From Gemmatimonadales bacterium (lineage in GTDB: Bacteria; Gemmatimonadota; Gemmatimonadetes; Gemmatimonadales; GWC2-71-9), in NCBI GenBank assembly GCA_035279705.1, contig DATEHG010000069.1, positions 6,091-70,090 on the forward strand: a DNA stretch of 64,000 bases. The letters are read 5' to 3'. Shown piece by piece: positions 1,573-38,257 of this stretch; positions within the stretch are counted from its first letter, which is position 1, and every line of letters begins with the position of its first letter. The notes beneath the pieces are model-generated. The model was not told the origin of the DNA and made no database searches. It saw only the letters and a program-made list of their open reading frames with translations. The position numbers and the translations under genes are program-made.

Positions 1573-1998
1573 CTAGCGGGCGCCCGGAATCTTGAACTGG
1601 GCTGGCTCACCGGTGCGGAGGCCGCAGGTCACGGTGAAGACACCGCCGTTGAGCGAGGCTTCTTCCTGGATGTCTCCCGTGGCGCGGCAGCCGGAGAGCT
1701 GCATGCCATCGGTCGAGCGGAAGACCACCGTGACCTCCGGCGAGCCATCGCGCACTGCCAGGCGGCGGATGGTGTACTTGCTGAGCGAGTCCACCCCGAC
1801 CTGGCGCAGGGTCGCGGGGAGCCGTCCCTGGTGGGCACTCTTGTAGCTCAGCACGGCGTCGATGGTGGCAAAGACGTCCCGGCCCAGCAGGTTGGCTTCG
1901 TCCTGCGCGTTGTTGGCCGGCTTGTCGCTGGCCGGCTTCTTGTGGCAGGCAGCGAGCGCCACCAGCGCCAGCAGCAGGCTATTCCAGCGCAAACTCAC
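1573..1998 (-). CDS. Hypothetical lipoprotein
   Basis: 141-aa ORF with a lipobox-type signal peptide (LLLALVALAAC). I recognise no further domain. Confidence 0.6.
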   Translation of the reverse strand: MSLRWNSLLLALVALAACHKKPASDKPANNAQDEANLLGRDVFATIDAVLSYKSAHQGRLPATLRQVGVDSLSKYTIRRLAVRDGSPEVTVVFRSTDGMQLSGCRATGDIQEEASLNGGVFTVTCGLRTGEPAQFKIPGAR

Positions 1999-2953
1999 GG
2001 TTGAACACCACCTCGAAGCTGAACGTCTTGGCCTTGCTCCGGGCCTCGATGTACTCGGCGATTTTCTGCAGCCGGCTGGGAATTCCCATGATCTTTTCCT
2101 GCGCCTTGCGGCCCAGTTCGTTCAGCCCGCTCAGGCTCTCGATCCTCCAGTACTCGATCTGCTCCTGCACGATCTTGAGGTAATCCCGCGGCCCGTAGAT
2201 CCCGGCCCTCCGGATTACGTCGGCAATGTCCCGGAAGTGCGGCATGCTGTGCCCCGGCATCTCGATGCTGGGAAGAATGAACGAGGCGGAGTGCAGCGCT
2301 TCATCGGGATCGCGCTGCAGGATCTCGTCGAACACCGTGCGGTAGAACTGGAAATGCCGCGCTTCCTCGGTGGCCACGTTGCGCAGCACTTCGCCCAGGG
2401 CCGGCTCGTATTCCGCCGCCAGCCGGCCGGTCTCGCTGTGGGAAGTCTGGGTCGCCCGCTCCTGCACGGTCGTGTACACGAACACCCGGTAGGGGTCCCG
2501 GTCCCACCCGGGGTGGAACCCGTTCCGGATGTAGTTGAACTGCATCTCCTCGAGGTGCCGCTGGTTGAACAGCCGCGTGTCCCGCCCGTAGTTGCTGAGC
2601 ACGGCGCCATGCCGGTCCTCTTCGGCCGTCCACAGGTTGTTCCATTCGCGCCAGTAGCTGTCGTCCCCGAGGTAGACCGAGATGAGGCGGTGGAAATGGG
2701 GCAGCCCCTCCTCCGTGAGGAGGTTGAGCGCCAGCGCCGCGCGGATATGGTCGGGGATGGTCTGGGCCCGCTTGCGCAGGCCTTCGGTGTGCTCATCCGG
2801 CGATTCGCCGGGCTCGGGGCCGAGCAGGTCTTCCGGGAACCAGAGCGTCCGCTTGCGCTCGTGCGCCGCCATCAGCTCCTTGACCCGGGTTTCCATGTCC
2901 CGCAGCACCTCCAGCTTGGAGTGGAACAGCCGTGCCGCTTCGGTGAGGGCCAT
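1979..2953 (-). CDS. Soluble acyl-ACP desaturase (di-iron, DesA1/stearoyl-ACP desaturase family)
   Basis: 324-aa ORF with di-iron ligand motifs typical of the family: LLTEEGLPHF, WTAEEDRHG, TQTSHSETG and ATEEARHFQFY. Confidence 0.85.
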   Translation of the reverse strand: MALTEAARLFHSKLEVLRDMETRVKELMAAHERKRTLWFPEDLLGPEPGESPDEHTEGLRKRAQTIPDHIRAALALNLLTEEGLPHFHRLISVYLGDDSYWREWNNLWTAEEDRHGAVLSNYGRDTRLFNQRHLEEMQFNYIRNGFHPGWDRDPYRVFVYTTVQERATQTSHSETGRLAAEYEPALGEVLRNVATEEARHFQFYRTVFDEILQRDPDEALHSASFILPSIEMPGHSMPHFRDIADVIRRAGIYGPRDYLKIVQEQIEYWRIESLSGLNELGRKAQEKIMGIPSRLQKIAEYIEARSKAKTFSFEVVFNREFALE

Positions 2954-3989: not shown

Positions 3990-4705
3990 CCGGCGGCCCG
4001 CACTGCGCCCCACACCCCCCAGAGGCCCGGCAGCAGCCACACGATTCCTGCCCCGATCAGCGCCTTCTTCAGCTCGATCTTGCCGGTGACAGAGAGGCCG
4101 AGCGCGAGCAGCCCCGTGCACCACAGGGTGATCAGGTCGAACCGGCCGAGGATCGTGAGCAGGACGAAATGGGCGTCCGGATCGATGAATCTGGCCGGGC
4201 CGAGTTGCAGGGCATAGCGGGAGGTGAGGGTGTCGGCTGAAACCACCGCTGCCTGGAGCAGGTTGGTCAGGCCCTCGAGCACTCTCGGGAACATGGCGTA
4301 CACGGCGACCATGCAGGCGGCCTCGAGTTCCTGCCGCGCGCCCACGAACTTCCCCGCAATCCAGAGGAAGAACCCGATGACCAGGGGCGCCACGAGGAGC
4401 ACGACGGGAATGATGACGGTGGTGAACTTGGTGGCGATCTGCCGGCCCTTGTCCACCTGCTCCTGCGTCATGGCCGGGTTCTGGCGCTGCTGGACGGCCA
4501 TCGCCCGATCAAACTCGGCGTCGTACATCGGCTGCAGCAGGCCGCGCCCTCCGAAGAACAGGGCGATCGAAACCGCGAACATGATCAGCAGCGGCAGCCA
4601 GAATCCGCTCGTGGCGCGCCGGGTAAAGACCGCGCGCGGCGCGTAGAAGATTTCGAGGAAGTCTTCCCAGATCGGGACCGGGGCAGCGGATACGGGGGCG
4701 GTCAT
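3986..4705 (-). CDS. Yip1 domain membrane protein
   Basis: Internal ATG at 4705 of ORF 3986..5014 (MTAPVSAAPVPIWEDFLEIFYAPRAVFTRR…). Five predicted TM segments, and the N-terminal motif is typical of the Yip1/DUF1282 family. Confidence 0.65.
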   Translation of the reverse strand: MTAPVSAAPVPIWEDFLEIFYAPRAVFTRRATSGFWLPLLIMFAVSIALFFGGRGLLQPMYDAEFDRAMAVQQRQNPAMTQEQVDKGRQIATKFTTVIIPVVLLVAPLVIGFFLWIAGKFVGARQELEAACMVAVYAMFPRVLEGLTNLLQAAVVSADTLTSRYALQLGPARFIDPDAHFVLLTILGRFDLITLWCTGLLALGLSVTGKIELKKALIGAGIVWLLPGLWGVWGAVRAAG

Positions 4706-4939
4706 GGGATTTGGTGATCCTCCGGCAGGTGGGCGTCGTCGGTGCCGAACGACCTGAAGTATCGTGCCATCGTGCCCGATCGGCCACTGGCCGGCGGGCG
4801 GCGCGGCCGTCGGTGACAAATTTCTTACACCCGCAATACTCGAACATTGGAGGCCGTGCCGCAATCGGTTATTTTCAATAGCCCTCCGTACACACCGCCG
4901 ACATTCGCAGCCAACGGAACCTGGTCTAGGAGTCCACGA

Positions 4940-5317
4940 TTGAGAATTCTGATCGTCGAGGACGCCCCCCTCGTCCAGAAGATGTACCGCCTGGTGTTTT
5001 CGCCCCGGGATCACGACCTGGTGATGGCCGCCAACGGCATCGAGGGGCTGCAGCTTCTCGACCAGCCGGGGATCCCCTTCGACCTCATCCTGCTCGATCT
5101 CCGCATGCCGGACATGGATGGCGCCGAGTTCATCGGCCGGGTTCGTGCCGGGCCCTGGTCGTCGGTTCCGGTCATCCTGACGACCGCTGAGCCGGAGGAC
5201 TCGCCGCTGCTGCAGCTGGCCCGGACGCGGGGCGCCTCGGTCACGGTGCGGAAGCCGTGGAAGCCGCAGGAACTGCGCGATGCGGTGGCCGCGCTGCTGG
5301 GGGGAGGCGGCGGATGA
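4940..5317 (+). CDS. cheY: CheY-like single-domain response regulator
   Basis: REC domain: IVEDAP…LILLDLRMPDMDG…VILTTA…VRKPW. I prefer TTG 4940, which is preceded by AGGAG at 4928..4932, over the track start at 4847. Confidence 0.85.
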   Translation: MRILIVEDAPLVQKMYRLVFSPRDHDLVMAANGIEGLQLLDQPGIPFDLILLDLRMPDMDGAEFIGRVRAGPWSSVPVILTTAEPEDSPLLQLARTRGASVTVRKPWKPQELRDAVAALLGGGGG

Positions 5318-5724
5318 GCGGCGCGAGTCCCGGCACCTTTCTGGTGGTCGACGATTCCCGGCTGCACCATCAGATGTACAAGGTCATCTTCTCGCAGGCC
5401 CCGCTCACGGGCAGCACCCTGCTGCACGCCCATAACGGCCGGGAGGGCTACGCCGCGCTCACCACCCGCCCTGACGTGACCCTGGTCTTCCTCGATCTCA
5501 ACATGCCGGAGATGAACGGCCTGGAGTTCCTGGCCCGGCGCCGGGCCGAGGCGCTGCACCCTCACATTCCGGTCGTCCTCGTCACCACGGAAAGCACCGC
5601 GGAGGATGAAGCAAGAGGGCGATCTGCCGGCGCCTGGGAGTACCTGCGCAAGCCGTTCACTCCCGCGGACGTGGTGGGGCTGGTGGCCCGGGCCCAGGCC
5701 GAGGCCCGGGGGCGCGCTCCCTGA
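5314..5724 (+). CDS. cheY: CheY-like single-domain response regulator (second copy)
   Basis: ATG 5314 overlaps the previous stop (ATGA). REC motifs VVDDS…VFLDLNMPEMNG…VLVTTE…LRKPF. Confidence 0.85.
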   Translation: MSGASPGTFLVVDDSRLHHQMYKVIFSQAPLTGSTLLHAHNGREGYAALTTRPDVTLVFLDLNMPEMNGLEFLARRRAEALHPHIPVVLVTTESTAEDEARGRSAGAWEYLRKPFTPADVVGLVARAQAEARGRAP

Positions 5725-5725
5725 A

Positions 5726-7375
5726 ATGACCGATGACAACGCCTTTGCCGAACTGCTTCAGGACTACATCGGTGAGTGTCTGCCGCTGGCCGAAGCGGTA
5801 GCCGACGGCTTCATCGAGCTCGAGCAACGGTGGCAGGCCGGGGACGCGGCCGACGAGCGGATTGCGCCGCTCAAGGGCACCCTCCATACCCTCAAGGGCA
5901 ACTCCGCAATGATGGGCTTTGCCCATCTGCAGGAGCTGGCCCACGCACTCGAAGATCTGCTTGGACGGCTGGGCGCCGAACCGCAACTGCGGGTACCGAG
6001 TGCCGACCTGCTGGTGGCGGGTGGCGGACTTCTGGTCGAGCTGGTGCCGCGGGCGGGAGACAAGGCGGCCGGAAAGGAACGCTCGGCGAGCTATGTCGCC
6101 CGGGTCCGGGAGGCGTTGGCGCAAGCTGGTGCGGCGGCCGCCGGACCTCTCGAACGCCGCTCGGCGGCTCCGGCGCGGGGGCGCCGGGCCGACGACCAGG
6201 TCGAGGCCGGCAGTGAACTCATCCGCATCGAAGCGAGGCGCCTGGACGCGCTGCTGGAAATCTTCGGCGAGGCCGTCATTGCTCACGCCGGGCTGGCCCA
6301 TGCCGCGCGCCGCCTGACCCGGAGGGATCGGGGACGGCCGGAGGTGCTGGAACTCGATCGCGGCCTCTCCGGCCTGGAACAGACGCTGCTGCGCCTCGAG
6401 AGCGCCCTCATGGAGGCACGGCTGGTCCCGATCGGTGGCGTATTCGCCCGTTTCGGGCGGCTGGTGCGGGACCTGGCCCACGGCGAGCACAAGCGGGTCC
6501 GCCTGGTGACGACGGGAGTCGAGACCCGCCTCGACAAGTCGGTGGTGGACCGGATCGGCGAACCGCTGGTTCACCTGGTGACCAACGCGCTCATCCACGG
6601 CGTTGAACCTCCGGCCGAACGGGAGCGGGGGGGCAAGCCCGCCGAGGCCACGCTGACCCTCACCGCCACCCCGCGCAGCGACCGGGTCATCGTGACCGTC
6701 GCGGATGACGGACGCGGACTCGATCCCGGCAGGCTCCTGCTCAAGGCCCAATCACTCGGGCTGGCACCGGCCAATCCCACGCCCGAGGAAATTCTGACGC
6801 TCGCCTTCCTGCCTGGTCTCTCCACCTCGGACCAGGTCGGTGCCATGGCCGGACGCGGTGTCGGGCTGGATGTCGTCGCCGGCAGCATTCGCGCGCTGGG
6901 TGGCAGCGTGGCGGTGGCCAGTACGCCCGGCAAGGGTGCGACGTTCACACTCACCCTGCCGCTCACGGTGGCTGTGGTCCGTTCCCTCATGATCGAATCG
7001 CTGGGAGAGCGCTACGCCATTCCGCTGCACGGCGTGGCGGAAACCGTCCGGTTGGGTGCCGACGACGTCCACGAGATTGAAGGACGCGGGATGCTGCTGT
7101 GGCGGGGTGAACTGATCCCGGTCCAGGACGCCGGCGATCTGCTCCGGAACGGGACCCGGGGCCAGGGGCGCTACTGCGTGGTACTGCAGGCCGAGTCCCG
7201 GCGCCGCGGGCTCTTGGTAGACCGGGTCATCGGGCACCAGGAAATCGTGGCCAAGGGTCTCGACCCGGTGCTGGGCCGGCCGCCGGTGGTGTCGGGAACG
7301 GCCGTGATGGGGGACGGGCGGGTGACCTGCATCCTGGATCCCGCTCGCATCGTCGAACGACGATTCGACTCCTGA
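5726..7375 (+). CDS. cheA: Chemotaxis histidine kinase CheA
   Basis: Internal ATG 5726 (MTDDNAFAELL…). Hpt motif LHTLKGNSAMMG, an HATPase region (…ADDGRGLD…GRGVGLDVV…) and a C-terminal CheW-like domain. Confidence 0.9.
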   Translation: MTDDNAFAELLQDYIGECLPLAEAVADGFIELEQRWQAGDAADERIAPLKGTLHTLKGNSAMMGFAHLQELAHALEDLLGRLGAEPQLRVPSADLLVAGGGLLVELVPRAGDKAAGKERSASYVARVREALAQAGAAAAGPLERRSAAPARGRRADDQVEAGSELIRIEARRLDALLEIFGEAVIAHAGLAHAARRLTRRDRGRPEVLELDRGLSGLEQTLLRLESALMEARLVPIGGVFARFGRLVRDLAHGEHKRVRLVTTGVETRLDKSVVDRIGEPLVHLVTNALIHGVEPPAERERGGKPAEATLTLTATPRSDRVIVTVADDGRGLDPGRLLLKAQSLGLAPANPTPEEILTLAFLPGLSTSDQVGAMAGRGVGLDVVAGSIRALGGSVAVASTPGKGATFTLTLPLTVAVVRSLMIESLGERYAIPLHGVAETVRLGADDVHEIEGRGMLLWRGELIPVQDAGDLLRNGTRGQGRYCVVLQAESRRRGLLVDRVIGHQEIVAKGLDPVLGRPPVVSGTAVMGDGRVTCILDPARIVERRFDS

Positions 7376-7384
7376 GGAGCCAAC

Positions 7385-7945
7385 ATGCCGCCCAAACGAG
7401 CCTCCTCCCGTACCACCGACCCGTCCGTCGCGCCGCCCGCGAGCGAACGGCTTCTCGCTTTCGCCGACGATCTGTCGCGACAGCAGGCCGCGGCCGCACC
7501 CAAGGCACCCGACCCCGAACTCCATCTCGTCACCTTCCGCCTCGAACGCGAGTCGTTTGCCGTACCGATCGAGCGGGTGCGCGAGGTGGTCCGGGTGAGC
7601 GACATCACCCGCGTGCCGGAGGCCCCGCCCCACATTCGCGGAGTCACCAACCTTCGGGGCCGGGTGCTCCCGGTGGTGGAACTTCGCACCCGCCTCGGCC
7701 TGACGGCGGCGGTGATCACTCCGGCCTCCCGCGTTCTCGTCGTCGAGGCACACGGGCGGGTCCTCGGTCTGCTGGTGGACGGCGTGTCGCGCGTGGTCAA
7801 GGTGCCGTCCTCCGCCGTCGTGCCGCCGCCAGAGGAGGTGCTGTCCGATCGCACCGACTACATCCCCGGGGTAGCCCGGACCGGCGATACCCTCCTGATC
7901 CTGCTTGATCTCGACCGTGCCCTGCTGTTGTCCGATGAACGCTGA
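7385..7945 (+). CDS. cheW: Coupling protein CheW
   Basis: 186-aa ORF with GAGGAG upstream. CheW domain: LVTFRLERESFAVPIERVREVVRVSDITRVPEAPPHIRGVTNLRGRVLPVVELR. Confidence 0.9.
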   Translation: MPPKRASSRTTDPSVAPPASERLLAFADDLSRQQAAAAPKAPDPELHLVTFRLERESFAVPIERVREVVRVSDITRVPEAPPHIRGVTNLRGRVLPVVELRTRLGLTAAVITPASRVLVVEAHGRVLGLLVDGVSRVVKVPSSAVVPPPEEVLSDRTDYIPGVARTGDTLLILLDLDRALLLSDER

Positions 7946-7978
7946 CCACCCCACTTCCCTCAGCCCCGTGATGCTCCC

Positions 7979-9475
7979 ATGAGCGATGGACTCGTGCAGC
8001 TGGTGCGTGACTGGACCATCCGCCGGAAGATTCTGACCGGCTTTTCGCTCGTGCTGCTGATTACCGCGCTGCTGGGCTGGATCTCCTGGCGAGAGCTCGA
8101 ACGGATGCGTACCGCGGCCGGCGCCGCCGCGCGCGGCGAGATCACCGGCGCGGTACTGGACCAGTTGAGCCAGGGCAGCAGTCTCTGGATCCTGGCTCTG
8201 GTCGCCACGGCGGTGCTCGTGGGCCTGGCCCTTGCCCTCTTCCTGGCCAGGATCATCGGCGATCCGCTGACCAACCTCGGCATCCTGGCGGAACAGGTCT
8301 CCAAGGGAGACTTGAGCAAGGACATCGTCAGCCGCTCCCGGGACGAGATCGGCTGGCTGGAACACTCGATGCGGACGATGGTCAAGAATCTGCGCCAGAT
8401 CGTCGGCCAGATTGCCGCTTCCTCGGCGGCGGCGGCCACGACGGCCGAGCAGGTCTCGGCCGCGGCCACCCAGATGGCCCGCGGAGCCGAGGCCCAGTCG
8501 AGTTCGACCGAGGAGACGTCCGCCACGATGGTCGAGATGGCCGCGCAGATGCAGGCGCTGGCCCGCAACGCCGAGGCCCTGGCCGCCAACGTGGATGAGA
8601 CCTCGACCTCGATTCACGAGATGAGCACCGTCCTGGGGCAGACTTCGAAGAACGGCGAAGGACTGCTCCAGGCGGTCGAGGAGGCCATGGGCCGTCTCAG
8701 CCAGATGATCGAGAACATGACGCGTATCGCCGCCCGGGTGCACGAGGTCGACGAGGTCTCCAAGCGTTCCGCCGGCGAGGTGCGTGGCGGCGGGGAGCGG
8801 CTGCACAACTCCATCGGCCTGATCGGCGAGCGCTCCGAGGAAATCGGCAAGATCATCCGGGTCATCGACGACATTGCCGATCAGACCAACCTCCTGGCCC
8901 TCAATGCCACGATCGAGGCCGCCCGCGCCGGAGACGCCGGCAAGGGATTCGCCGTCGTGGCCGACGAGGTCCGCCGCCTGGCGGAGCGCTCGGCCCAGGC
9001 CACCCAGGAGATCGGCGACCTGATCGAAACCGTTCAGAAGGAAACCCGCAGCGCGGTGCAGCTGATGGAGCAGGTCCTGTCAGGCATCGTCGGCTCGATC
9101 GATCGGACCTCCACCCTGGTGGGCGAAGTCGCCGGCTCCGCCGAATCGCAGGCCACCGATGCCCGGCAGGTCTTGCAGGCCGCGGGCAACATGTCCGCGC
9201 TGACCCGCCAGATCTCCAACTCGATCCGGGAAAATGCCGCGGGCGCCCGCGAGGTCACCCAGGCGGCGGAGAAGATGAACCAGCTCACCCACCAGATGTC
9301 CGAAGCCGTCGCCGAGCAGCGCCGCGGCGGTGAGATGGTGGTCAAGGCGGTCGAGTCGATCGCCCTGGTGTCCCGGCAGAATCTGGTGGCGGTGGAGCAG
9401 CTCACCGGTGCGGCCAAGTCCCTGGCCTCGGAGTCCGAGGCGCTCAAACAGCGCGTCGGATCCTTCACGATCTGA
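7979..9475 (+). CDS. Methyl-accepting chemotaxis protein (2 TM, approximately 30-aa outer loop, HAMP, signalling domain)
   Basis: 498-aa ORF with a HAMP segment and the conserved signalling hairpin [41 protein letters not shown] see no recognisable periplasmic ligand-binding domain. Confidence 0.9.
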
Positions 9476-11511
9476 TGCTCGAAGAGGAGTCGGCCGCCCT
9501 CGGCCGTCGGCTGGCCGGCCTGGCGGAAGCCTCCGACCTGCCCGCCCGCGATCGCCTGATCCTGTCCGGCCTCGAGGCGTCCGGCGCTCAGGAGCGGGAG
9601 GTGGCGATCGCGTGGGCGGCGCGATGCTTCGAACCGCCCCGGCTGACCGGACTGGTGGCCGACGAGGCCAACGCCGCGCTGCGCAACGGCGCGCTCGAGG
9701 CGTTGCGCCGGCAGGGCCCCTACGCGCTTGAGCACCTGCACAGCCGTCTGGACGGCGACGATCCCGACCTGGTGATGTTCTCGGTCCAGACTCTCGCCCT
9801 GATCGGGTCACCCGCCAGCATTCCCGCCCTGCTGCCCCTGCTTCGCCACACCGCCAGCAATGTGGTGCAGGTATCCGCCGAGGCGCTGGGCGGGCTCAGG
9901 GCCAGGGCGGCGGTGCCTGGTTTGATCGAGCTGCTGCGGGGTGATCTCTGGCTGCAGCTGGCGGCCATCGAAGCCCTCGGTTCGATCGGGGACGCCCGGG
10001 CAGTCGGTCCCCTGCTGAGCCTCTATCCGGACGGGCCGCTGGCTGAGCCGGTCGCGGGGGCGCTGGGCCGGATCGCGGCTCCGGAGGCGGCACCGGCCCT
10101 GGTCGCGGTGCTCGGCCAGGATCGCTGGCGTCCGCTCTGGCCGGCCACGCTGGTGGCCACGGCCGCCTCGATCAGCACCGCCTCCGATCCTGCCAGCGTG
10201 GTGGGGCCGCTGAACCCGCTGCTCGATCAGGGGGAGCTGGCCGATTTCTTCCTGGCTGCCCTCGGGGGACAGTCGCGGGACGCCGGAGATCCGGGCGCGG
10301 CCGCGGGGACCATTCGCGATGACCGCCGCCAGGCCCGTGGAGGTGGTACTCAGCAGCGTGCGGCGGCCTTGCTTGCCCTCGCCTCGGCGGTGCGGAGACA
10401 GGTCCGCGCCGTCATGGCACTGGGTGCCGAGACGGACTGGGCCGATTGGCTCGCCCCCCAAGCAGACCGCTTCGCGAAGGGACTCGGGGTGCTGGCCGGA
10501 CCGCTGCTCACGGATGCCGACCCCCTGGTCAGGGCGGGTGCTCTGCGCGTGCTCCCGGCCGGCGTCTTGAGCACCTCGAAGGTCGAGGCCTGCCTCCAGG
10601 ATCCTCAGCAGGAAGTCCGGACAGCGGCTTGCCTGGCGCTGGGGCGCCTGCAGGATCCGACCGCGGTTCCGGCTTTGCTGGACCGGCTCCGCACTGGTTC
10701 ACCTGCCGAGCGAACCGCCGCCGCGGCCGCGCTGAGTGCGGTGCCCGGGGCCGAGGTTCAGGACGCCCTGGCTTCGTGCCTGGCGCCCGAAACCCCGCGC
10801 GAGGTCATGCTGGCCGCGCTTTCGGCACTCGAACGGGCCGGTGGCCCGTCCATCGAGAGCCGATTGCTCGAATTGGCCCGTTCCCCTGCGGTCGAGGTGC
10901 GCCGCGGTGCGCTGCGCGCGCTGGCACCACTCCCCGGCGGCAAGGGCGAAGTGGCGCTGCTTCGGGCACTGGCCGATCGGGATTCGGGCGTCCAGACCCT
11001 GGCCCTGGACCTGCTCGTGAAACGGGGCGGTGAACATGTGCTCCGCACCTTTCTGATGATGCTGCAGGCAAACGATTCGCTCCGCTATCACGTGATCCGG
11101 GCGCTGGGCCGGCTGGGAGCACCCGAGGCGGCGCCGGCACTGCAGACGCTGTATCCCGGCTGCCAGCTGCACGAGCGGCTGGAAATCCTCACCGCACTGG
11201 GCCGCCTAGGCGCTCCGGGCCGCCAGCAGTTCCTGCGGCAGCAGCTCCACGACAGCGAGATTGATATCAGGCGCGCCGCGGCCTGGGCGGTCGCGGAGAG
11301 TGCCCGGGCCGACGATCTGCCGCTGCTGGAAGAAATGGCCCGGGACGCCGACTGGGCCCTGCGGGGTGAGGCCGCACGTGGACTGGGCCGGAGCGGCGCG
11401 GATGCCGCGCGGCCACTGCTGCTCGATCTGGCCCGTGATCTCGAGCGGGTCGTGGCCGGGGTGGCGGTCCGGGCCCTGGAGGCCGCGTCGCCAGGAAGGA
11501 GCCCCGGGTGA
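9475..11511 (+). CDS. HEAT-repeat (PBS-lyase-like) protein embedded in the che operon
   Basis: 678-aa ORF with many repeats of the type A..ALG.LG...A.P.L..LL.D.d..VR..A. Its start overlaps the mcp stop (TGATG). Confidence 0.8.
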   Translation: MLEEESAALGRRLAGLAEASDLPARDRLILSGLEASGAQEREVAIAWAARCFEPPRLTGLVADEANAALRNGALEALRRQGPYALEHLHSRLDGDDPDLVMFSVQTLALIGSPASIPALLPLLRHTASNVVQVSAEALGGLRARAAVPGLIELLRGDLWLQLAAIEALGSIGDARAVGPLLSLYPDGPLAEPVAGALGRIAAPEAAPALVAVLGQDRWRPLWPATLVATAASISTASDPASVVGPLNPLLDQGELADFFLAALGGQSRDAGDPGAAAGTIRDDRRQARGGGTQQRAAALLALASAVRRQVRAVMALGAETDWADWLAPQADRFAKGLGVLAGPLLTDADPLVRAGALRVLPAGVLSTSKVEACLQDPQQEVRTAACLALGRLQDPTAVPALLDRLRTGSPAERTAAAAALSAVPGAEVQDALASCLAPETPREVMLAALSALERAGGPSIESRLLELARSPAVEVRRGALRALAPLPGGKGEVALLRALADRDSGVQTLALDLLVKRGGEHVLRTFLMMLQANDSLRYHVIRALGRLGAPEAAPALQTLYPGCQLHERLEILTALGRLGAPGRQQFLRQQLHDSEIDIRRAAAWAVAESARADDLPLLEEMARDADWALRGEAARGLGRSGADAARPLLLDLARDLERVVAGVAVRALEAASPGRSPG

Positions 11512-12338
11512 GTCCCGGGGAGGAACTCGAGTGGAAGCTGCTCACCGACCTGCTTGAAGCCCGATACGGGCTGGTCTTTCCCGGAGTCCGGCTCGACATT
11601 CTCCGGGCCCGCCTCAACGCCCGGCTGGCCGCGCTGCACCTCGACACCTTCCTCGACTACTACCACTACCTGCGGTCCCATCCCGATCGTGAAGCCGAGT
11701 TTGTCGAAGTGGTGCGGCGCACCACCAACAACGAGACCTACTTTCTTCGGGAGCCGCACCACTTCGACATCGTGGTGCGCCATGTCATCCCCGCCCTGGG
11801 CACGGCGCTGCGCCAGCGGCCCCTGCGGGTACTCTCGGCCGCCTGTTCCTCCGGCGAAGAGCCGTATTCGCTGGTGATCGCGCTGCAGCACGCCGGCGTG
11901 GAGTTGAACGGAGTGCAGTGGCAGATCGACGCCTGCGATCTCAATGTCGATCGTCTCGAGCAGGCCCGGCGGGCCACGTACGAGGCCGGCTCGCTCCGGG
12001 CCTGCTCCGAGGAGGACAAGGCGAGACTGTTTACGGCCGAGGGCAATCGCTTCGTGCTCAAGGAGCGCTACCGCAAAGGCGTCCGCTTCGTCGAGGCCAA
12101 TCTGGCGCTGCCGTTCAGCGGCCTGGGCGCCCAGTCCTACGATGCGATCTTCTGTCGCAACCTGCTCATCTACCTGAGTGAAATGGCCATCCGGACGCTG
12201 ATCGACCGGTTTGCCAGGCTGCTGCCGCCGGGTGGACTCCTGCTGCTGGGTCACTCGGAGTCTCTCATCGACAAATCGACCGCCTTCGCGCCGGTGGTGC
12301 TCGAGGGCGTTGTGGTCTATCGCCGGGTGGCGGCATGA
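11508..12338 (+). CDS. cheR: Chemotaxis protein methyltransferase CheR
   Basis: 276-aa ORF whose GTG start overlaps the HEAT gene stop (GTGA). CheR motifs: TNNETYFLREPHHF, LRVLSAACSSGEEPYS and IFCRNLLIYL. Confidence 0.9.
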   Translation: MSPGEELEWKLLTDLLEARYGLVFPGVRLDILRARLNARLAALHLDTFLDYYHYLRSHPDREAEFVEVVRRTTNNETYFLREPHHFDIVVRHVIPALGTALRQRPLRVLSAACSSGEEPYSLVIALQHAGVELNGVQWQIDACDLNVDRLEQARRATYEAGSLRACSEEDKARLFTAEGNRFVLKERYRKGVRFVEANLALPFSGLGAQSYDAIFCRNLLIYLSEMAIRTLIDRFARLLPPGGLLLLGHSESLIDKSTAFAPVVLEGVVVYRRVAA

Positions 12339-13369
12339 GTATCCGGGTGTTCGTGGTCGACGACTCCTCGTTCGTGCGCAAGGCGCTGGCCCGGGCGCTC
12401 GCCGGCCGGGGAGACATCGTGGTCGTAGGCGAGGCCGCGACGGGGGCCGAAGCGCTGGCGGCAGTGCCGGCGGCCAACCCCGATGTCGTCACGCTGGACG
12501 TGGCGATGACCGGCATGGACGGGCTGGCCACGCTGCGGGCGTTGCTGGCCTGGCGGCCATCGCTGATCGTCATCATGCTGTCGGCCCATACCCGGGAGGG
12601 TGCCTCGGCCGCCCTGCAGGCGCTCGAGATCGGGGCGGTGGACTTCATCGACAAGACCGCGCTGCGATTGATGGACCTCGATCACGTGGGCCATGAACTG
12701 CAGGAGCGCATCGAGGCCTGGCGTCCCCGGATGAGCGGTCCCGCCCGGCCGCGAGGACAAACGGTCCGGCCGGCAGTGTCCGCGCCGGCCACGGGAGACC
12801 TGACCCGCATCGAGCTGTGTGTGATCGGCGCCAGCACGGGCGGGCCGCCGGCATTGCAGCATCTGCTGGAGCGGCTGCCCGCCGACTTTCCGCTCCCCGT
12901 TGCCATTGTCCAGCACATGCCGGCGGGATTTACCGCGCCCTTTGCGGAGCGGCTCAACGCGCTCTGCCGGCTCACGGTGTCCGAGGCCCGGGAGGGCGAG
13001 GTGCTGAGCCCCGGAAAAGTCCTGATTGCCCCGGCGGGCAGGCACCTCCGGATCGGTACACGTTTGCGCGCGCTGCTCGACGAGGATGGGGCGGGGGCCA
13101 CGCATGTTCCCAGTGTCGACGTGCTCATGCGGTCCGCCAGTGAAGTGCGGCCCGGAGCCACGCTCGGAATTCTGCTCACGGGAATGGGGGACGACGGGGC
13201 GGACGGGATGTGCCGGATCAGGGCGTCCGGAGGTTTCACGGTCGGTGAGAGCGAAGCCTCCTGCGCGGTGTTCGGCATGCCGCGCGCTGCCGCAATGCGG
13301 GGGGGCGTCGACCGGATGCTGAGCCTGCCGGAAATCGGGGAACTGCTGGCCGGCTTCCCCGGCCGCTGA
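12335..13369 (+). CDS. cheB: Protein-glutamate methylesterase CheB (REC plus methylesterase)
   Basis: 344-aa ORF with an ATGA overlap with cheR. N-terminal REC (VVDDS…LDVAMTGMDG) followed by the CheB catalytic domain (IGASTGGPPAL…VQHMPAGFT…LTGMGDDGA). Confidence 0.9.
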   Translation: MSIRVFVVDDSSFVRKALARALAGRGDIVVVGEAATGAEALAAVPAANPDVVTLDVAMTGMDGLATLRALLAWRPSLIVIMLSAHTREGASAALQALEIGAVDFIDKTALRLMDLDHVGHELQERIEAWRPRMSGPARPRGQTVRPAVSAPATGDLTRIELCVIGASTGGPPALQHLLERLPADFPLPVAIVQHMPAGFTAPFAERLNALCRLTVSEAREGEVLSPGKVLIAPAGRHLRIGTRLRALLDEDGAGATHVPSVDVLMRSASEVRPGATLGILLTGMGDDGADGMCRIRASGGFTVGESEASCAVFGMPRAAAMRGGVDRMLSLPEIGELLAGFPGR

Positions 13370-13387
13370 GCAGCGCCCCGCGCCCCG

Positions 13388-14776
13388 TCAGAGCAGGGTG
13401 CCGCGCAGTACCAGGAGGCCGACCGAAAAGAAGATGATCAGCCCTGTGACGTCGACCAGCGTGGCCACGAACGGCGCCGAAGCGCTGGCGGGGTCGAAGC
13501 CGACGCGGCGGAGTACAAAGGGCAGCATCGAGCCCGCCAGCGAACCGAACAGCACCACGCCCACCAGCGCCAGCGCCACCGTCGTGGCGACCAGCCGGTA
13601 GTGATCGCCGTAATCGTACCAGCCCAGGTGCTGCCAGAGGATGATCCGGAAAAAGCCGATGACCCCGAGGATGCAGCCCAGGATGAATCCCGAGGGCAGC
13701 TCGCGGACGGCTACCCGCCACCAGTCCTTGAGCGTCACCTCCTGCAGGGCCATCGCGCGGATGATGAGGGACGTGGCCTGCGAGCCGCTGTTGCCCCCCG
13801 AACTGATGATGAGCGGAATGAACAGCGCCAGCACCACGGCCTTGCTGATCTCGTGCTCGAAATGTCCCATGGCCGTGGCGGTGAGCATTTCGCCCAGGAA
13901 GAGGGCGCAGAGCCAGCCGGCCCGTTTCTGGATCATCTTGCTCAGCCCGATTTCCATGTACGGCTCGTCCAGCGCTTCCATGCCGCCGAACTTCTGCACG
14001 TCTTCCGTCGTCTCGGAAATCAGGGTGTCGATGATGTCGTCTACCGTCACGATGCCGAGTATCTGGCCGCCTTCATTGACCACGGGAATGGCGAGCAGGT
14101 TGTACTTCGAGATCAGCCGGGCCACTTCTTCCCGGTCGATCAGGGGCCGGGTCGTGACCGGCTTGCGCCGCTCGCCGATCTCGAGGACCGGGGTTTCGGA
14201 CGCCACCATGATCACCTCGCGCAGCGAGATGACGTGCTGCAGCCGCTGGTCCTTCTCGTCGACCACGTAGATGGCGTAGACGGTTTCCTTGGCACTGCCG
14301 ACTTCGGTGATGAACTTGCGCACCTGCAGCGCCGTCCAGCTGCCGGGGACGCTCAGAAATTCCGTCGTCATGATGCCGCCCGCGCTGGTGGGCGGATAGT
14401 TGAGCAGCTGGCGGAGCAGGTCCCGGGTCGGAGCGTCGATCAGGTGCCCCAGCCGCTCCCGGTCGGGATCGCCCAGCTCGCGGATGAGGCCGACCTGCTG
14501 GTCGGACGACATCGCCGAGATGATCGGCCCGAGCACCTCGTTGGGGAGATGGGTGACGATGCCGGCCCGGTCGGTCAGCTCCGGCTCGTCGAAGACCTGG
14601 ACCGCGAGGTGGAACGGCAGCGCCCGCACCACCTGCGCCGCGCCCTCGGGCGGCAGCTGGCTCAGCGCCTCGGCGATGTCCGCCGGCTGCATGTTCTGAC
14701 TGGCTTCGAGAAAATCGTCCTCGTCGCCGGACAGGAGATACAGCAGCTCAGGGGTCGGAGCGTCGGAGGTGGGCAT
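13388..14776 (-). CDS. mgtE: Magnesium transporter MgtE
   Basis: 462-aa ORF with the MgtE N-domain, tandem CBS domains and a C-terminal TM domain (…IPLIISSGGNSGSQ…PFVATLVDVTG…). Confidence 0.9.
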   Translation of the reverse strand: MPTSDAPTPELLYLLSGDEDDFLEASQNMQPADIAEALSQLPPEGAAQVVRALPFHLAVQVFDEPELTDRAGIVTHLPNEVLGPIISAMSSDQQVGLIRELGDPDRERLGHLIDAPTRDLLRQLLNYPPTSAGGIMTTEFLSVPGSWTALQVRKFITEVGSAKETVYAIYVVDEKDQRLQHVISLREVIMVASETPVLEIGERRKPVTTRPLIDREEVARLISKYNLLAIPVVNEGGQILGIVTVDDIIDTLISETTEDVQKFGGMEALDEPYMEIGLSKMIQKRAGWLCALFLGEMLTATAMGHFEHEISKAVVLALFIPLIISSGGNSGSQATSLIIRAMALQEVTLKDWWRVAVRELPSGFILGCILGVIGFFRIILWQHLGWYDYGDHYRLVATTVALALVGVVLFGSLAGSMLPFVLRRVGFDPASASAPFVATLVDVTGLIIFFSVGLLVLRGTLL

Positions 14777-27395: not shown

Positions 27396-28487
27396 TCAGG
27401 CGGGCTGCGGTTCCCCCTTCACGGTGCGGTAGACGTACGCGGGGAGCTGCTCCGGCACCTGGAGCGCGCCGGTGATGAGATCGTGGCGCGGGGAAAGAGT
27501 GCAGACAGGGTCGGTCGCCGCGGCGTCGCCGGTCAGGGCAAAGGCCTGGCAGCGGCAGCCGCCGAAGTCGGTGTGCTTCCGGGGACAGGAGCGGCAGGGC
27601 TCCTGCATCCACGCGTCGCCTCGGAAGGCATTGAAAATGGGTGATTCCCGCCAGATGGCGCCAAGGCTCTGTTCCCGCACATTGACGAACTGCAGGTGGG
27701 AAATCTGCGTGGCGCCGTGGCACGGCAGCGCCTTGCCGTCCGGCGTGACCAGGATGTAGACCCTGCCCCATCCCGCATAGCAGGCCTTGGGGTAGGTCTC
27801 GTAGTAATCCGGCAGCACGTAGAGAATCTGCATCTGGCCCCGGTACCGCTCGATCGCCGCCGCGGCGATCGGCCGCGACCGCTCGACCTGCTCCCGCGTC
27901 GGCATCAGCGCCGCCCGGTTGGTGAGCGCCCAGCCGTAGTACTGGGTGTTGGCCAGCTCCAGCCGGTCCGCGCCGAACTCGGCGGCCATCGCGATGATCG
28001 CCTCGAGATGATCGAGATTGCCGCGGTGCAGCACTACGTTCACCGAAAAGGCGAGACCCAGTTCCCGCACCAGCGCCGCCGCCTCCCGTTTCTGCTTCAC
28101 CGACCGGATGCCCGCGATCTTCTCGGCATTGGCGGTGTCGGCGTCCTGGAACGAGATCTGGATATGGTCGAGCCCGGCGGTCTTGAGCCGCTCGGCCCGC
28201 GCCCGGGTCAGGCCGAGGCCCGAGGTCACCAGAGTGGTGTACAGCCCCTCGGAGCGGGCGTGCCCGACCAGTTCCTCCAGGTCCTTCCGCACCAGCGGTT
28301 CCCCGCCAGACAGCCCAAGCTGCAGCACACCAAGCTCCCGCGCCTCGGTCAGCACCCGCTTCCACTGCTCGGTGGTGAGTTCGGCCTCGGCGCGGCTCAT
28401 CTCCAGTGGATTGGAGCAGTAGGGACAGTGCAGCGGGCAGCGGTACGTCAGCTCCGCCAGCAGCGTGGTGGGCAGCAGGTCAGCCAC
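27396..28487 (-). CDS. pqqE: PQQ biosynthesis radical SAM/SPASM protein PqqE
   Basis: 363 aa. CPLHCPYCSN radical-SAM cluster motif and a C-terminal SPASM cysteine set (…CRSCPRKHTDFGGCRCQA…). The GTG start overlaps the pqqD stop by 8 nt. Confidence 0.95.
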   Translation of the reverse strand: MADLLPTTLLAELTYRCPLHCPYCSNPLEMSRAEAELTTEQWKRVLTEARELGVLQLGLSGGEPLVRKDLEELVGHARSEGLYTTLVTSGLGLTRARAERLKTAGLDHIQISFQDADTANAEKIAGIRSVKQKREAAALVRELGLAFSVNVVLHRGNLDHLEAIIAMAAEFGADRLELANTQYYGWALTNRAALMPTREQVERSRPIAAAAIERYRGQMQILYVLPDYYETYPKACYAGWGRVYILVTPDGKALPCHGATQISHLQFVNVREQSLGAIWRESPIFNAFRGDAWMQEPCRSCPRKHTDFGGCRCQAFALTGDAAATDPVCTLSPRHDLITGALQVPEQLPAYVYRTVKGEPQPA

Positions 28488-28753
28488 GGCTGGTCACCAG
28501 ATCGCGGCGGGACAGGTCGTTGAGATACTCGATCACGTCGGCCGAGACGTCGGTCCCGTACTGCTCGGCAAGGGTGCCTGAAATTTCGCGCACCGTCCGC
28601 TGCCCGTCGCACAACTCGAGGATCGCGGCGCCCGTGTCGTTGATGAACATCGCGCCCTCCGGATAGAGCAGGACCCGGCGCTGGCGGACCCGGTCGAAGT
28701 CGATCCGCGCCAGGCGCCAGAGGCTGGGCCGTGAATCGGGGCCGATATTCACG
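28480..28753 (-). CDS. pqqD: PQQ biosynthesis peptide chaperone PqqD
   Basis: GTG 28753 overlaps the pqqC stop (GTGA). 91 aa: …RVLLYPEGAMFINDTGAAILELCDGQRTVREISGTLAEQYG…. Confidence 0.85.
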
Positions 28754-29510
28754 CCTGTCCGGGCTCCAGGTAGGCGTGATGAATGTTGTCGATCAGGGCC
28801 CAGAGCATTTCCAGCTTGAACGCGAGTGCCCCGAACGCCTTTCGCTGGCTGTCCACCGTGGTGCAGTGCTGCTGCACGATCGACAGGCCGTGCTTGACGT
28901 CTCTCGGCGCCTGGACCAGCCGGCTCTTGAAGTAGTCCAGCGCTTCCGGCGGGATCCAAGGGTAATGGCGGGGAAAGGCTTCGATGCGCTCGCCGTGGAT
29001 GCGGGGCGCGAACAGTTCGGTGAGTGACGAAGCGCAGGCGGTGACCCAGTCGTTGTTGCGGCAGAAGGTGACGTAGGACTCGCAGATGAGGCGCACTCCA
29101 GGGAGGACGTGGCGCTCGTCCTCCATCTCCTCGCGCGGCACGCCGAGGGCCACACCGAGACGGATCCACAGTTCGATGCCGCCGGTGCCCGGGGCTCTGC
29201 CATCGTGGTCCACGATCCGCTGGATCCACTCCCGGCGCACTTCGGGGTCAGGGCAGTTGCTGAGGATCGCCGCGTCCTTCCGCGGCACGACCCGCTGGTA
29301 GGCGAGGCGGTTGGCGACCCACCCCTGGAACTGGCGCTGGGTGAGTTTGCCTTCGTACATCAGGCGGTGGAATGGATGGCTGACGTAGTACGACCCGCTG
29401 AATGAGCGGAGCGCCGCCTCCAGGGCTTCGGGGGAAAGAGGCCGGTCCAGCGTCGGTATTGGAGGCGCGGGTGGCGCCGCCAGGAGTGAGGCGTTGAGGG
29501 TGGCCGTCAT
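28749..29510 (-). CDS. pqqC: Pyrroloquinoline-quinone synthase PqqC
   Basis: 253 aa with family-typical strings: YYVSHPFHRLMYEGKLTQRQFQGWVANR, ILSNCPDPEVRREWIQRIVDHDG and YFKSRLVQAPRDV. Confidence 0.95.
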   Translation of the reverse strand: MTATLNASLLAAPPAPPIPTLDRPLSPEALEAALRSFSGSYYVSHPFHRLMYEGKLTQRQFQGWVANRLAYQRVVPRKDAAILSNCPDPEVRREWIQRIVDHDGRAPGTGGIELWIRLGVALGVPREEMEDERHVLPGVRLICESYVTFCRNNDWVTACASSLTELFAPRIHGERIEAFPRHYPWIPPEALDYFKSRLVQAPRDVKHGLSIVQQHCTTVDSQRKAFGALAFKLEMLWALIDNIHHAYLEPGQA

Positions 29511-29558
29511 CCGTCGGTTCCGGGAAAGTTGCGCCGGAGCAATGTGGCGCTGGAGGCT

Positions 29559-29594
29559 GAAAATACGAACGGGGCCCGCCAGTCAGCGGGCCCC
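29559..29594 (-). terminator. Strong hairpin plus U-tract immediately after pqqA (attenuator between pqqA and pqqC)
   Basis: Minus strand GGGGCCCGC-UGACUG-GCGGGCCCC followed by GUUCGUAUUUUC. It begins 19 nt after the pqqA stop. Confidence 0.7.
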
Positions 29595-35176: not shown

Positions 35177-35179
35177 GGC

Positions 35180-35208
35180 TGAAGAAAGGGGCCGCCCCGC
35201 GCGGGGCG
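35180..35208 (-). terminator. GC hairpin plus pyrimidine tract in the 36-nt gap between the hybrid kinase and pqqB
   Basis: Minus strand CGCCCC-GCGC-GGGGCG followed by GCCCCUUUCUUCAGCC-AUG(pqqB). Confidence 0.4.
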
Positions 35209-35212
35209 CAAG

Positions 35213-38209: not shown

Positions 38210-38257
38210 TCCGACTGATCCTACCGCGCCCGCGGCGCGGCGCCAGCCCCGGAGGTC

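Follow-up and report, generated by a model that had tools for sequence, protein, structure and literature searches.

A complete chemosensory operon of an uncultured Gemmatimonadales bacterium with a HEAT-repeat protein as its probable output partner

A chemosensory gene cluster in the order cheY-cheY-cheA-cheW-mcp-HEAT-cheR-cheB lies on the forward strand (4940-13369) of the 64-kb stretch of DNA analysed here (the window), which belongs to the MAG of an uncultured Gemmatimonadales bacterium, and its HEAT-repeat protein is probably the output partner of the pathway, as in the Che7 system of Myxococcus. On balance, we favour the explanation that the eight genes form a single co-transcribed chemosensory pathway in which the phosphorylated second CheY-like receiver (RR2~P) would deliver its output to the HEAT protein. 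For most non-flagellar chemosensory systems the output is not known; to our knowledge, Che7 of M. xanthus is the only bacterial system in which the action of a CheY on a HEAT-repeat protein has been studied experimentally, with nothing known downstream of it.

The gene order was recovered both by Pfam and by independent gene calls on the identical public contig (Table 1). The junctions are tight, with spacings of -4 between the first receiver (RR1) and RR2 (ATGA), +1 between RR2 and CheA, +9 between CheA and CheW, +33 between CheW and the MCP, -1 between the MCP and the HEAT protein (TGATG), -4 between the HEAT protein and CheR (GTGA) and -4 between CheR and CheB (ATGA), suggesting translational coupling across the cluster. 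The promoter-like site upstream of the first gene is the sole match in positions 4500-13800, with 0.4 expected from shuffles, and counts as weak evidence. No terminator-like sites were found on the forward strand inside the operon. Chance does not account for the arrangement: some 40 genome loci from Gemmatimonadales show this same gene order, with HEAT proteins sharing 39-49% identity with that of the window. All six core chemosensory protein types are present in the cluster, each with its diagnostic domains above the Pfam gathering cut-offs, and inspection of the translations shows the phospho-acceptor and catalytic motifs. As read from these predicted proteins, the cluster is a complete canonical pathway, comprising MCP-CheW-CheA-CheY signalling and CheR/CheB adaptation. 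A Pfam survey of selected ORFs across the whole window detected no genes for flagella, pili or gliding. The original prediction, which had described this gene order with its overlapping or near-abutting junctions, a chemosensory cluster with an in-operon HEAT-repeat gene between mcp and cheR, and no flagellar or pilus genes nearby, was thus sustained on all these points.

Table 1 Features of the chemosensory cluster and its upstream region in the window.
Feature	Position	Strand	Length	Characteristics	Evidence
Soluble acyl-ACP desaturase	1979-2953	-			FA_desaturase_2, 4e-96
Promoter-like site	4813..4840	+		GTGACA-16-AATACT; ~100 bp 5' of first gene	Consensus scan
RR1	4940..5317	+	125 aa	Single-domain CheY-like receiver; TTG start	Pfam Response_reg 1.6e-19; gene call
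RR2	5314..5724	+	136 aa	Single-domain receiver	Pfam Response_reg 6e-19; gene call
CheA	5726..7375	+	549 aa	Histidine kinase; P1 (Hpt), P3, P4, P5	Pfam Hpt, H-kinase_dim, HATPase_c, CheW
CheW	7385..7945	+	186 aa	Coupling protein; N-terminal extension of ~45 aa	Pfam CheW 3.5e-36
MCP	7979..9475	+	498 aa		Pfam HAMP, MCPsignal
HEAT-repeat protein	9475..11511	+	678 aa		Pfam HEAT_2 3.7e-57, 9 stretches
CheR	11508..12338	+	276 aa	Methyltransferase; GTG start	Pfam CheR 1.2e-43, CheR_N 7.1e-11
CheB	12335..13369	+	344 aa	Methylesterase with N-terminal receiver	Pfam CheB_methylest 6.1e-61, Response_reg

Neither a P2 domain nor a fused receiver (REC) gave a Pfam match in CheA. CheB exceeds the cut-off of the NCBIfam model PRK00742 (356.7 bits vs 293), and the NCBIfam matches of CheA, CheW and CheR, including those to the CheA models, are generic similarities below the cut-offs that give no class-level call. 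Linkage to flagellar genes, considered as a mark of the F class in the Wuichet-Zhulin scheme, was not found within the 64-kb window in the Pfam survey. The marks considered for the Tfp class (Chp/Pix type), namely PATAN- or PilG/PilH-type receivers, a hybrid CheA and linked pil genes, were not found: CheA has no receiver domain, PATAN is lacking in the window and the Gemmatimonadales loci, and pil genes are lacking in the window.

The MCP has two hydrophobic segments (TM1, residues ~18-36; TM2, ~68-91) followed by a HAMP domain (88-140), and the loop between them is about 31 aa long, in agreement with the predicted pair of TM helices some 30 aa apart with no periplasmic sensor domain. Across 30 MCP orthologues this loop is only 28% identical to that of the window, as against 66-76% for the HAMP domain and the bundle. 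The signalling hairpin, with its tip at D319 and arms of 179 + 179 aa, spans about 51 heptads; its N-arm has 56 residues more than that of the 36H receptor Tsr, and the MCP has an EE motif of the methylation type that lines up with Tsr. A literature search for a 52H receptor class found nothing.

Evidence for the output comes from the distribution of the HEAT protein. Its family, of about 630-690 aa and conserved end to end, with H-x3-N-V-A-Q and D-x-W-L-Q-L-A-A motifs and an invariant N-terminal block (residues ~60-215), was seen in no organisms other than uncultured Gemmatimonadales, Acidobacteriota and Myxococcota, and a genome scan with the family alignment yielded 62 loci, all of them in MAGs. 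Orthologous clusters retain the HEAT gene, a lack of which had been named with the original prediction as refuting it. An RR2-type receiver gene lies upstream of the HEAT gene in all 38 loci with enough upstream flank, while CheA is found in only 29 of them. In Gemmatimonadales and Acidobacteriota the HEAT gene follows the MCP gene and precedes cheR, in two Myxococcota loci it comes after cheW, and in a further variant a receiver gene stands immediately 5' of it. Thirteen Myxococcota MAG loci have only an RR2-type receiver, GAF, PATAN-GAF and HEAT genes, their operons lacking che genes altogether. In the closest sampled relatives of the window CheA, the HEAT gene comes straight after the MCP gene, even in clusters without CheR/CheB, and the HEAT protein there matches the family profile with a probability of 100% (E 3.7e-47). 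The sensors differ between groups, with none in the window MCP, dCache in Acidobacteriota and MCPs of 786-838 aa in Myxococcota, and the CheA/CheW/MCP set, the CheR/CheB set and a GAF+PATAN pair are variably present, while RR2 and the HEAT protein stay constant. Because the HEAT protein accompanies one CheY-type receiver in three phyla, it is the probable output partner, and the original proposal of a protein-protein output finds its best reading in a CheY-to-HEAT step, the HEAT family accompanying the RR2-type receiver even in loci without other che genes.

Uncultured Myxococcota contain many divergent members of the HEAT family, and two protein searches, one from a Polyangia CheA and the other from a divergent HEAT protein of Polyangia, returned metagenomic proteins only. 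Giant HEAT proteins dominated an exhaustive representative search (8447 matches at E<=1e-30); HEAT matches of 1088 aa were rejected as family members, the one checked having no che context. Gemmatimonadales loci contain no additional conserved operon gene that would point to an output. MgtE, a convergent downstream neighbour, is confined to many Gemmatimonadales loci and was therefore treated as inherited synteny, its functional link being rejected.

The HEAT protein was modelled as a 42-helix alpha-solenoid (AF2 pLDDT 90.2, pTM 0.82) with a disordered loop at residues 267-286. Foldseek searches with this model returned only generic solenoids, namely CAND1, karyopherin-beta2, SF3B1 and PP2A-A (TM ~0.35), and detected no enzyme-like or catalytic fold. 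These matches give no hint of function; as modelled, the protein is purely a scaffold for protein interactions.

RR1 and RR2 are 37% identical to each other. RR1 does not occur in 7-8 of the Gemmatimonadales loci or in the locus groups of Acidobacteriota and Myxococcota (groups B, C and D), and it is, by these comparisons, a diverged paralogue of RR2 specific to Gemmatimonadales. RR2 carries the signature TE....D..RG..AGA..Y..KPF, and its orthologues across locus groups A to E share 38-78% identity. The conserved positions are mostly the usual active-site residues and the TE....D..RG motif; in the orthologue alignment the alpha4-beta5-alpha5 face shows no extra conservation, with a segment identity no higher than elsewhere, which was counted against the pathway favoured here.

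In the proposed mechanism, the membrane-anchored MCP, which has no periplasmic sensor, would control CheA by way of CheW. Its probable role is to sense a membrane-proximal or cytoplasmic cue via the TM/HAMP region, or else to act as an array scaffold. For adaptation, the MCP would be methylated by CheR and demethylated by CheB. CheA would phosphorylate RR2 as the dedicated output receiver, and RR1 may be a phosphate sink or a second branch. By analogy with CheY7 and Cpc7 of M. xanthus, RR2~P would then bind the HEAT solenoid, which could serve as an output adaptor that recruits or releases a partner. In that precedent, binding of CheY7 to the HEAT protein Cpc7 depends on phosphorylation, as summarised in PMC11514114 and PMC9040617. 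The pairing of RR2 with HEAT in 38 of 38 loci amid variable other parts makes signalling from the MCP through CheA and RR2~P to a HEAT scaffold the most likely mechanism, and we hold this full pathway reading, which draws on comparative genomics and analogy, with slightly more belief than doubt.

An unlikely alternative is that the final target is a motility machine, either type IV pili or a flagellum, with the HEAT protein as an adaptor between receiver and motor and with taxis, not an alternative cellular function, as the output. The HEAT/RR2 pair is accompanied by a PATAN (DUF4388) protein as well as GAF genes in the sister clusters of Acidobacteriota and Myxococcota, and PATAN is a known chemosensory output domain; if anything, these partners may hint at type IV pilus control. 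Yet no PATAN gene is present in the window or within 10 kb of any Gemmatimonadales locus, and the flagellar and pilus genes are absent from the window. Myxococcota, a phylum that as a whole is not known to have flagella, carry the cluster as well. In Halobacterium, a HEAT_PBS protein from the che region has CheY, CheD and CheC2 as binding partners, and flagellar switching depends on it (PMC2666748). Receivers in pairs like RR1 and RR2 are a typical feature of chemosensory systems that control pili. Cultured Gemmatimonas species have flagella and CheA (PMC9862903), but the genome scan, which covered 185,579 species genomes with a one-motif pattern and misses divergent family members, did not find the HEAT family in them.

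It is improbable that the HEAT protein instead serves the receptor array as a structural or adaptation accessory, such as a CheR/CheB tether or a CheY~P phosphatase-like partner. The position of its gene between mcp and cheR, with stop and start codons overlapping at both ends, also fits such an accessory and was counted against the RR2-HEAT reading; in addition, the MCP ends in ...GSFTI without a C-terminal NWETF-type tether, and the haloarchaeal HEAT_PBS protein binds adaptation proteins, CheD and CheC2, as well as CheY (PMC2666748). Against this, the HEAT protein and the receiver are retained in the 13 loci without MCP, CheR and CheB, the HEAT protein is retained in MCP/CheA/CheW clusters without CheR/CheB, and no catalytic fold was found for it.

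The desaturase gene does lie about 2 kb upstream on the other strand, as had been noted, but control of membrane lipid unsaturation through this enzyme, as proposed for che7/des7, is highly improbable: its synteny with the cluster in 12 Gemmatimonadales loci, an MCP without an external sensor that could read membrane state and the importance of Che7 for temperature-stress resistance reported in PMC9040617 are outweighed by its opposite orientation, by three unrelated intervening genes (encoding a GNAT acetyltransferase, a 91-aa protein and Yip1), and by its absence within reach in 12 other of the ~24 Gemmatimonadales loci with enough flank and from all loci of groups B, C and D. The genes around the desaturase and the operon differ between loci, which is a pattern of inherited synteny, not of functional linkage, and the tempting lipid-desaturation link of the original prediction was removed as unsupported.

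Returning to the RR2-HEAT pathway, we tentatively suggest a broader interpretation, which is possible but doubtful. RR2 and a HEAT solenoid of 630-690 aa may constitute a self-contained and previously unrecognised output module in a distinct chemosensory lineage of three phyla (Gemmatimonadota, Acidobacteriota and Myxococcota), with receptors of about 51 heptads, a CheA without a detectable P2 domain and no cultured representative. In this tentative scheme, CheA/CheW/MCP, CheR/CheB and GAF+PATAN would be modular additions, the system would not be a Che7 orthologue, and the target would be neither the flagellum nor lipid desaturation. Apart from this scheme, the comparisons show that the HEAT solenoid and its one specific receiver family form a module that is conserved and abundant among uncultured soil lineages from the three phyla, with interchangeable parts around it. 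The defined RR2/HEAT pair and several natural 'deletion variants' are thereby available for testing such pathways.

Several known systems bear comparison with the window cluster. Like CpcE/F and NblB, the HEAT protein has HEAT repeats of the PBS-lyase type (Pfam HEAT_PBS 1.7e-15), but it is three times longer, phycobilisome genes are absent from the window, and the NCBIfam likeness to NblB is confined to one repeat block. An identity as a bilin lyase or NblB was rejected on NCBIfam scores (NblB 87.3 bits vs a cut-off of 300; CpcE 36.9 vs 330), and the resemblance to these phycobilisome lyase and degradation proteins is, judging from the profile matches, at the repeat level only. The haloarchaeal protein OE2401F of Halobacterium salinarum (Schlesner et al. 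2009, PMC2666748), compared here by description, likewise has HEAT/PBS repeats and is encoded in a che region; it binds CheY and is needed for signal relay, as would be predicted for the window protein. It differs in being archaeal and limited to haloarchaea, where its partners are DUF439 (CheF) proteins and the archaellum, and repeat proteins are noted to give unreliable sequence matches (PMC2666748). The cyanobacterial Tax/Pix systems, which control type IV pili, resemble the sister clusters of Acidobacteriota and Myxococcota in having PATAN and GAF beside RR2/HEAT. In contrast, the PATAN of these clusters is not fused to a receiver and has no pil genes nearby, and the window operon and all Gemmatimonadales loci are without PATAN and GAF genes.

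The closest comparison is with Che7 of M. xanthus, which, reportedly as described by Darnell et al. in 2014, consists of CheY7, CheA7, CheW7, Mcp7, Cpc7, CheR7, CheB7 and Des7, the fatty-acid desaturase gene des7 being said to be part of the cluster. MXAN_6961, the untabulated gene between those of Mcp7 and CheR7, is presumably cpc7. The predicted resemblance stands for the gene order and fails for the receptor type, the second CheY and a desaturase within the cluster. Mcp7 is an 821-aa receptor of class 40H without TM or HAMP (PMC3945109), whereas the window MCP is shorter, with two TM segments, HAMP and about 51 heptads. Che7 has one receiver where the window has two, the window CheW has an N-terminal extension, the window desaturase is outside the operon and not conserved, and Cpc7 is described with 27 helices in PMC11514114, compared with 42 in the window model. 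On the other hand, the locus tags of CheY7 (MXAN_6965), CheA7 (6964), CheW7 (6963), Mcp7 (6962), a gap (6961), CheR7 (6960) and CheB7 (6959) give the same order, cheY-cheA-cheW-mcp-[HEAT]-cheR-cheB (PMC3945109), with the HEAT protein and Cpc7 compared by description only. Both CheA proteins combine Hpt, dimerisation, ATPase and CheW domains and lack a fused receiver (PMC3945109), and CheR and CheB are of similar size (273 and 348 aa in Che7, 276 and 344 aa in the window). The output of Che7 is a single-domain CheY acting on a HEAT-repeat protein, and comparative genomics favours the same kind of output for the window cluster.

The eight genes from RR1 to CheB, in which RR1 and RR2 are the first and second single-domain CheY-type receivers, match exactly the gene list and order of the original prediction, as shown by Pfam and by independent gene calls taken from a public contig identical to the window. 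The overlapping or near-abutting ATGA, TGATG and GTGA junctions were also confirmed in the sequence, the successive spacings being -4 (ATGA), +1, +9, +33, -1 (TGATG), -4 (GTGA) and -4 (ATGA). Because the junctions are tight, only one promoter-like site was found (~100 bp upstream) and the scan detected no + strand terminator-like site inside, the eight genes are read as one operon. By Pfam, CheA has no fused receiver and no match to a P2 domain.

Features of the window and of relative loci (L-numbers); each of the eight operon genes is supported by Pfam and independent gene calls.
Feature	Position	Strand	Remarks
RR1	4940-5317	+	TTG start
RR2	5314-5724	+	
CheA	5726-7375	+	Hpt, dimerisation, ATPase and CheW-like domains
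CheW	7385-7945	+	
MCP	7979-9475	+	
HEAT	9475-11511	+	678 aa
CheR	11508-12338	+	
CheB	12335-13369	+	
Acyl-ACP desaturase	1979-2953	-	soluble; Pfam 4e-96
MgtE magnesium transporter	13388-14776	-	converges on cheB, 18-bp gap
Radical SAM/SPASM and TENA/PqqC-family proteins	27396-29582	-	adjoining
Regulatory block	29948-38257	-	densely packed
Radical SAM/TENA cluster in relatives	L001 21050-22010; L004 20452-21977		PqqD-like protein and ABC-2 transporter also present
GAF+PATAN pair	L002 14041-16127; L029 7668-9954; L070 6525-8986; L071 6512-9004		
RR-GAF-PATAN-HEAT and second che cluster	L036 12428-19865		same strand

The HEAT-repeat protein matches Pfam HEAT_2 in nine stretches (3.7e-57), and its AlphaFold2 model (pLDDT 90.2, pTM 0.82; alignment of 22 sequences) predicts an unbroken 42-helix solenoid with a single disordered loop at residues 267-286. 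A structure search with this model returned only generic HEAT scaffolds (CAND1, karyopherin-beta2, SF3B1 and PP2A-A; TM ~0.35), which marks the protein as a protein-binding scaffold rather than an enzyme. Identities as NblB or CpcE were rejected, the NCBIfam scores lying far under cut-off and covering single repeat blocks only. Homologues form ~100 clusters of 640-685 aa whose alignments cover the full length at 39-72% identity, with a further set at 32-35%. Invariant residues fall in two blocks, one N-terminal (H125, N129, Q132, W159 and others) and one C-terminal (R599, R600, D626, W627 and R630). The disordered loop (window 10273-10332) contains the short motif [RG]DDR..(x)RGG. The closest relatives (P0002, P0004, P0005, P0012 and P0019) keep this motif, whereas it is deleted from most of the rest of the family; it may represent either a linear motif or an insertion specific to the lineage. 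The HEAT ORF fails a simple codon-position filter, and on the - strand long ORFs whose third codon positions are rich in G+C (9034-9807, 9808-10698, 10699-11205 and 11206-11541) run antisense to the end of the MCP gene and to HEAT. These were rejected as artefacts of Ala/Arg/Leu-rich repeats, since the + strand HEAT gene is secured by Pfam and the ~100 homologue clusters.

The family's most conserved motif was scanned against a single genome from each of 185,579 species, yielding 62 loci, all in MAGs: ~40 from Gemmatimonadales, ~15 labelled Myxococcota or Deltaproteobacteria, ~8 from Acidobacteriota (Thermoanaerobaculia, Holophagales and Polarisedimenticolaceae) and one short contig labelled Solirubrobacterales. 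Cluster variants were defined by mapping the window proteins onto these loci, with Pfam on selected loci. The order is RR1-RR2-CheA-CheW-MCP-HEAT-CheR-CheB in Gemmatimonadales (variant A; RR1 absent in 7-8 loci), RR2-CheA-CheW-MCP(dCache)-HEAT-CheR-CheB followed by GAF and PATAN (DUF4388) genes in Acidobacteriota (variant B), and RR2-CheA-CheW-HEAT-CheR-CheB-MCP in two Polyangia/Deltaproteobacteria MAGs (variant C). Thirteen Myxococcota MAG loci carry an RR2-type receiver, GAF, PATAN-GAF and HEAT in an operon without che genes (variant D). Variant E, detected through the closest CheA relatives rather than the motif scan and abundant in Polyangia MAGs, comprises an RR2-type receiver, GAF, PATAN, CheA, CheW, MCP and HEAT without CheR/CheB; its HEAT protein lacks the scan motif, yet its match to the family profile spans 626 columns (probability 100%, E 3.7e-47). 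Two single loci have CheA divergent from HEAT and the order RR-GAF-CheD-CheA-CheR-CheB-RR-HEAT, respectively. The HEAT gene is thus conserved in orthologous clusters, the same che/HEAT order recurring in ~40 Gemmatimonadales loci and in Acidobacteriota.

Several arrangements around this core were also observed. The GAF then PATAN (DUF4388/PatA_N) gene pair recurs beside RR2/HEAT in MAGs of Acidobacteriota and Myxococcota, whether or not che genes are present, and was found neither in the Gemmatimonadales loci nor in the window. In an Anaeromyxobacteraceae MAG (L036, variant D), RR-GAF-PATAN-HEAT is directly followed by a different che cluster (CheA, 4HB-MCP, CheR, sCache-MCP, CheW, CheB) with ~33% identity to the window proteins (CheB 42%), which may supply the kinase for the stand-alone module. 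The Gemmatimonadales MAG SMAG_U15214 carries two full variant A clusters, on contigs DATIWD010000010 (L012) and DATIWD010000025 (L019), representing either paralogues or strain heterogeneity in the bin.

A non-motility role, as originally proposed, is unproven. As anticipated, no flagellar, pilus or gliding genes turned up when selected ORFs from the whole 64 kb (G+C ~68%) were surveyed with Pfam; the motif scan placed the family in no cultured genome, flagellated Gemmatimonas species included, and its frequency in Myxococcota also counts against flagellar control. However, PATAN proteins, whose domain is an output domain binding the type IV pilus motor in Synechocystis, accompany the RR2/HEAT module in three variants, and a haloarchaeal HEAT protein serves a motility switch (PMC2666748).

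An RR2-type receiver lies upstream on the same strand in all 38 genome loci whose upstream flank is 5.2 kb or longer, CheA in 29 of these 38, and CheR and CheB in 36/46 and 37/46 loci with at least 2.2 kb downstream. The RR2 family, 38-49% identical between phyla, keeps the signature L.VDDS.L.H.M ... HA..G ... LD.NMP.M.GLEFL ... TE....D..RG..AGA..Y..KPF; RR1, a Gemmatimonadales-only paralogue, is 37% identical to RR2. The constant unit is therefore the RR2-type receiver plus the HEAT solenoid, with sensors, kinase module, adaptation enzymes and GAF/PATAN pair as exchangeable parts around it, the pattern expected if the receiver acts on HEAT. HEAT persists in loci that lack the receptor or CheR/CheB, which fits poorly with the alternative that it serves these as an accessory. 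This constancy and persistence best support a model in which MCP would signal to CheW/CheA, CheA would phosphorylate RR2, and RR2~P would bind the HEAT scaffold, which in turn would act on a further partner; CheR and CheB would provide adaptation, and RR1 may be a lineage-specific sink or side branch. The predicted CheY-to-HEAT output is thus the best reading of the locus. The analysis establishes the gene content, the structure of the operon, the solenoid fold and the co-occurrence, whereas phosphotransfer, binding and the target are inferred.

The MCP has the two predicted transmembrane helices (~18-36 and ~68-91) separated by a 31-aa loop (~30 aa expected) and followed by HAMP. Its hairpin tip, D319, aligns to E391 of E. 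coli Tsr, and its arms are 179 residues each (~51 heptads). As the N-arm exceeds that of the 36H receptor Tsr by 56 residues and each arm exceeds those of the 44H receptor TM1143 by ~25, the receptor belongs to the 48H-52H range, not 40H. In 30 orthologues from Gemmatimonadales, identity to the window is only 28% in the periplasmic loop but 66-76% in HAMP and in the entire bundle as far as the C terminus, so the loop is not read as a ligand site. Input would then come through the membrane/HAMP region or from other receptors.

A lipid link, proposed from the acyl-ACP desaturase on the other strand, was not supported. Although present, the desaturase has three genes between it and the operon, encoding a GNAT acetyltransferase, a 91-aa protein and Yip1; among Gemmatimonadales loci with at least ~5 kb upstream it is present in 12, always on the opposite strand, and absent in 12, and it was found in no variant B, C or D locus. 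Its proximity thus probably reflects inherited synteny within a subclade without functional association. MgtE, the downstream neighbour in most Gemmatimonadales loci, is also treated as synteny because it is absent in other phyla. The survey further identified transporters, two-component and sigma-54 regulators, a radical-SAM cluster, and cytochrome c maturation and fatty-acid synthesis genes. The radical SAM/TENA genes, whose synteny with the che operon is shared by several Gemmatimonadales, look like a small RiPP- or PQQ-like peptide-modification cluster. The regulatory block encodes a receiver-sigma54 activator, a HAMP-HisKA kinase, a PAS-sigma54 activator, a metallo-beta-lactamase-fold protein and a 1014-aa multi-PAS hybrid kinase with receiver.

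The cluster represents a large family of chemosensory clusters with no cultured member, in which a specific receiver and a HEAT solenoid form the constant core. The two make up a widespread module and offer a clear, testable protein pair for work on non-canonical chemosensory systems, the outputs of which are poorly understood. Among studied systems, Che7 of Myxococcus xanthus is the closest, and a Che7-like architecture is the best reading, although the cluster shares only part of the features of Che7. The locus tags (CheY7 MXAN_6965, CheA7 6964, CheW7 6963, Mcp7 6962, CheR7 6960, CheB7 6959; PMC3945109) follow the gene order of the window, the tables leaving out one gene that lies between mcp and cheR. 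CheA7 (683 aa) lacks a receiver (PMC3945109). According to secondary sources, CheY7 binds the 27-helix HEAT-repeat protein Cpc7, and Che7 affects temperature-stress resistance and sporulation (PMC11514114; PMC9040617). The comparison with Che7 was therefore sound as a lead, and given Che7 the cluster comes as no surprise in principle. In contrast, Mcp7 (821 aa, class 40H, without TM or HAMP; PMC3945109) differs from the window MCP in topology and heptad class, and the window has a second receiver, a desaturase outside the operon and a HEAT protein larger than Cpc7. A second precedent for a CheY-binding HEAT-type protein is the haloarchaeal HEAT_PBS protein, which has CheY, CheD and CheC2 as binding partners and on which flagellar switching depends (PMC2666748).
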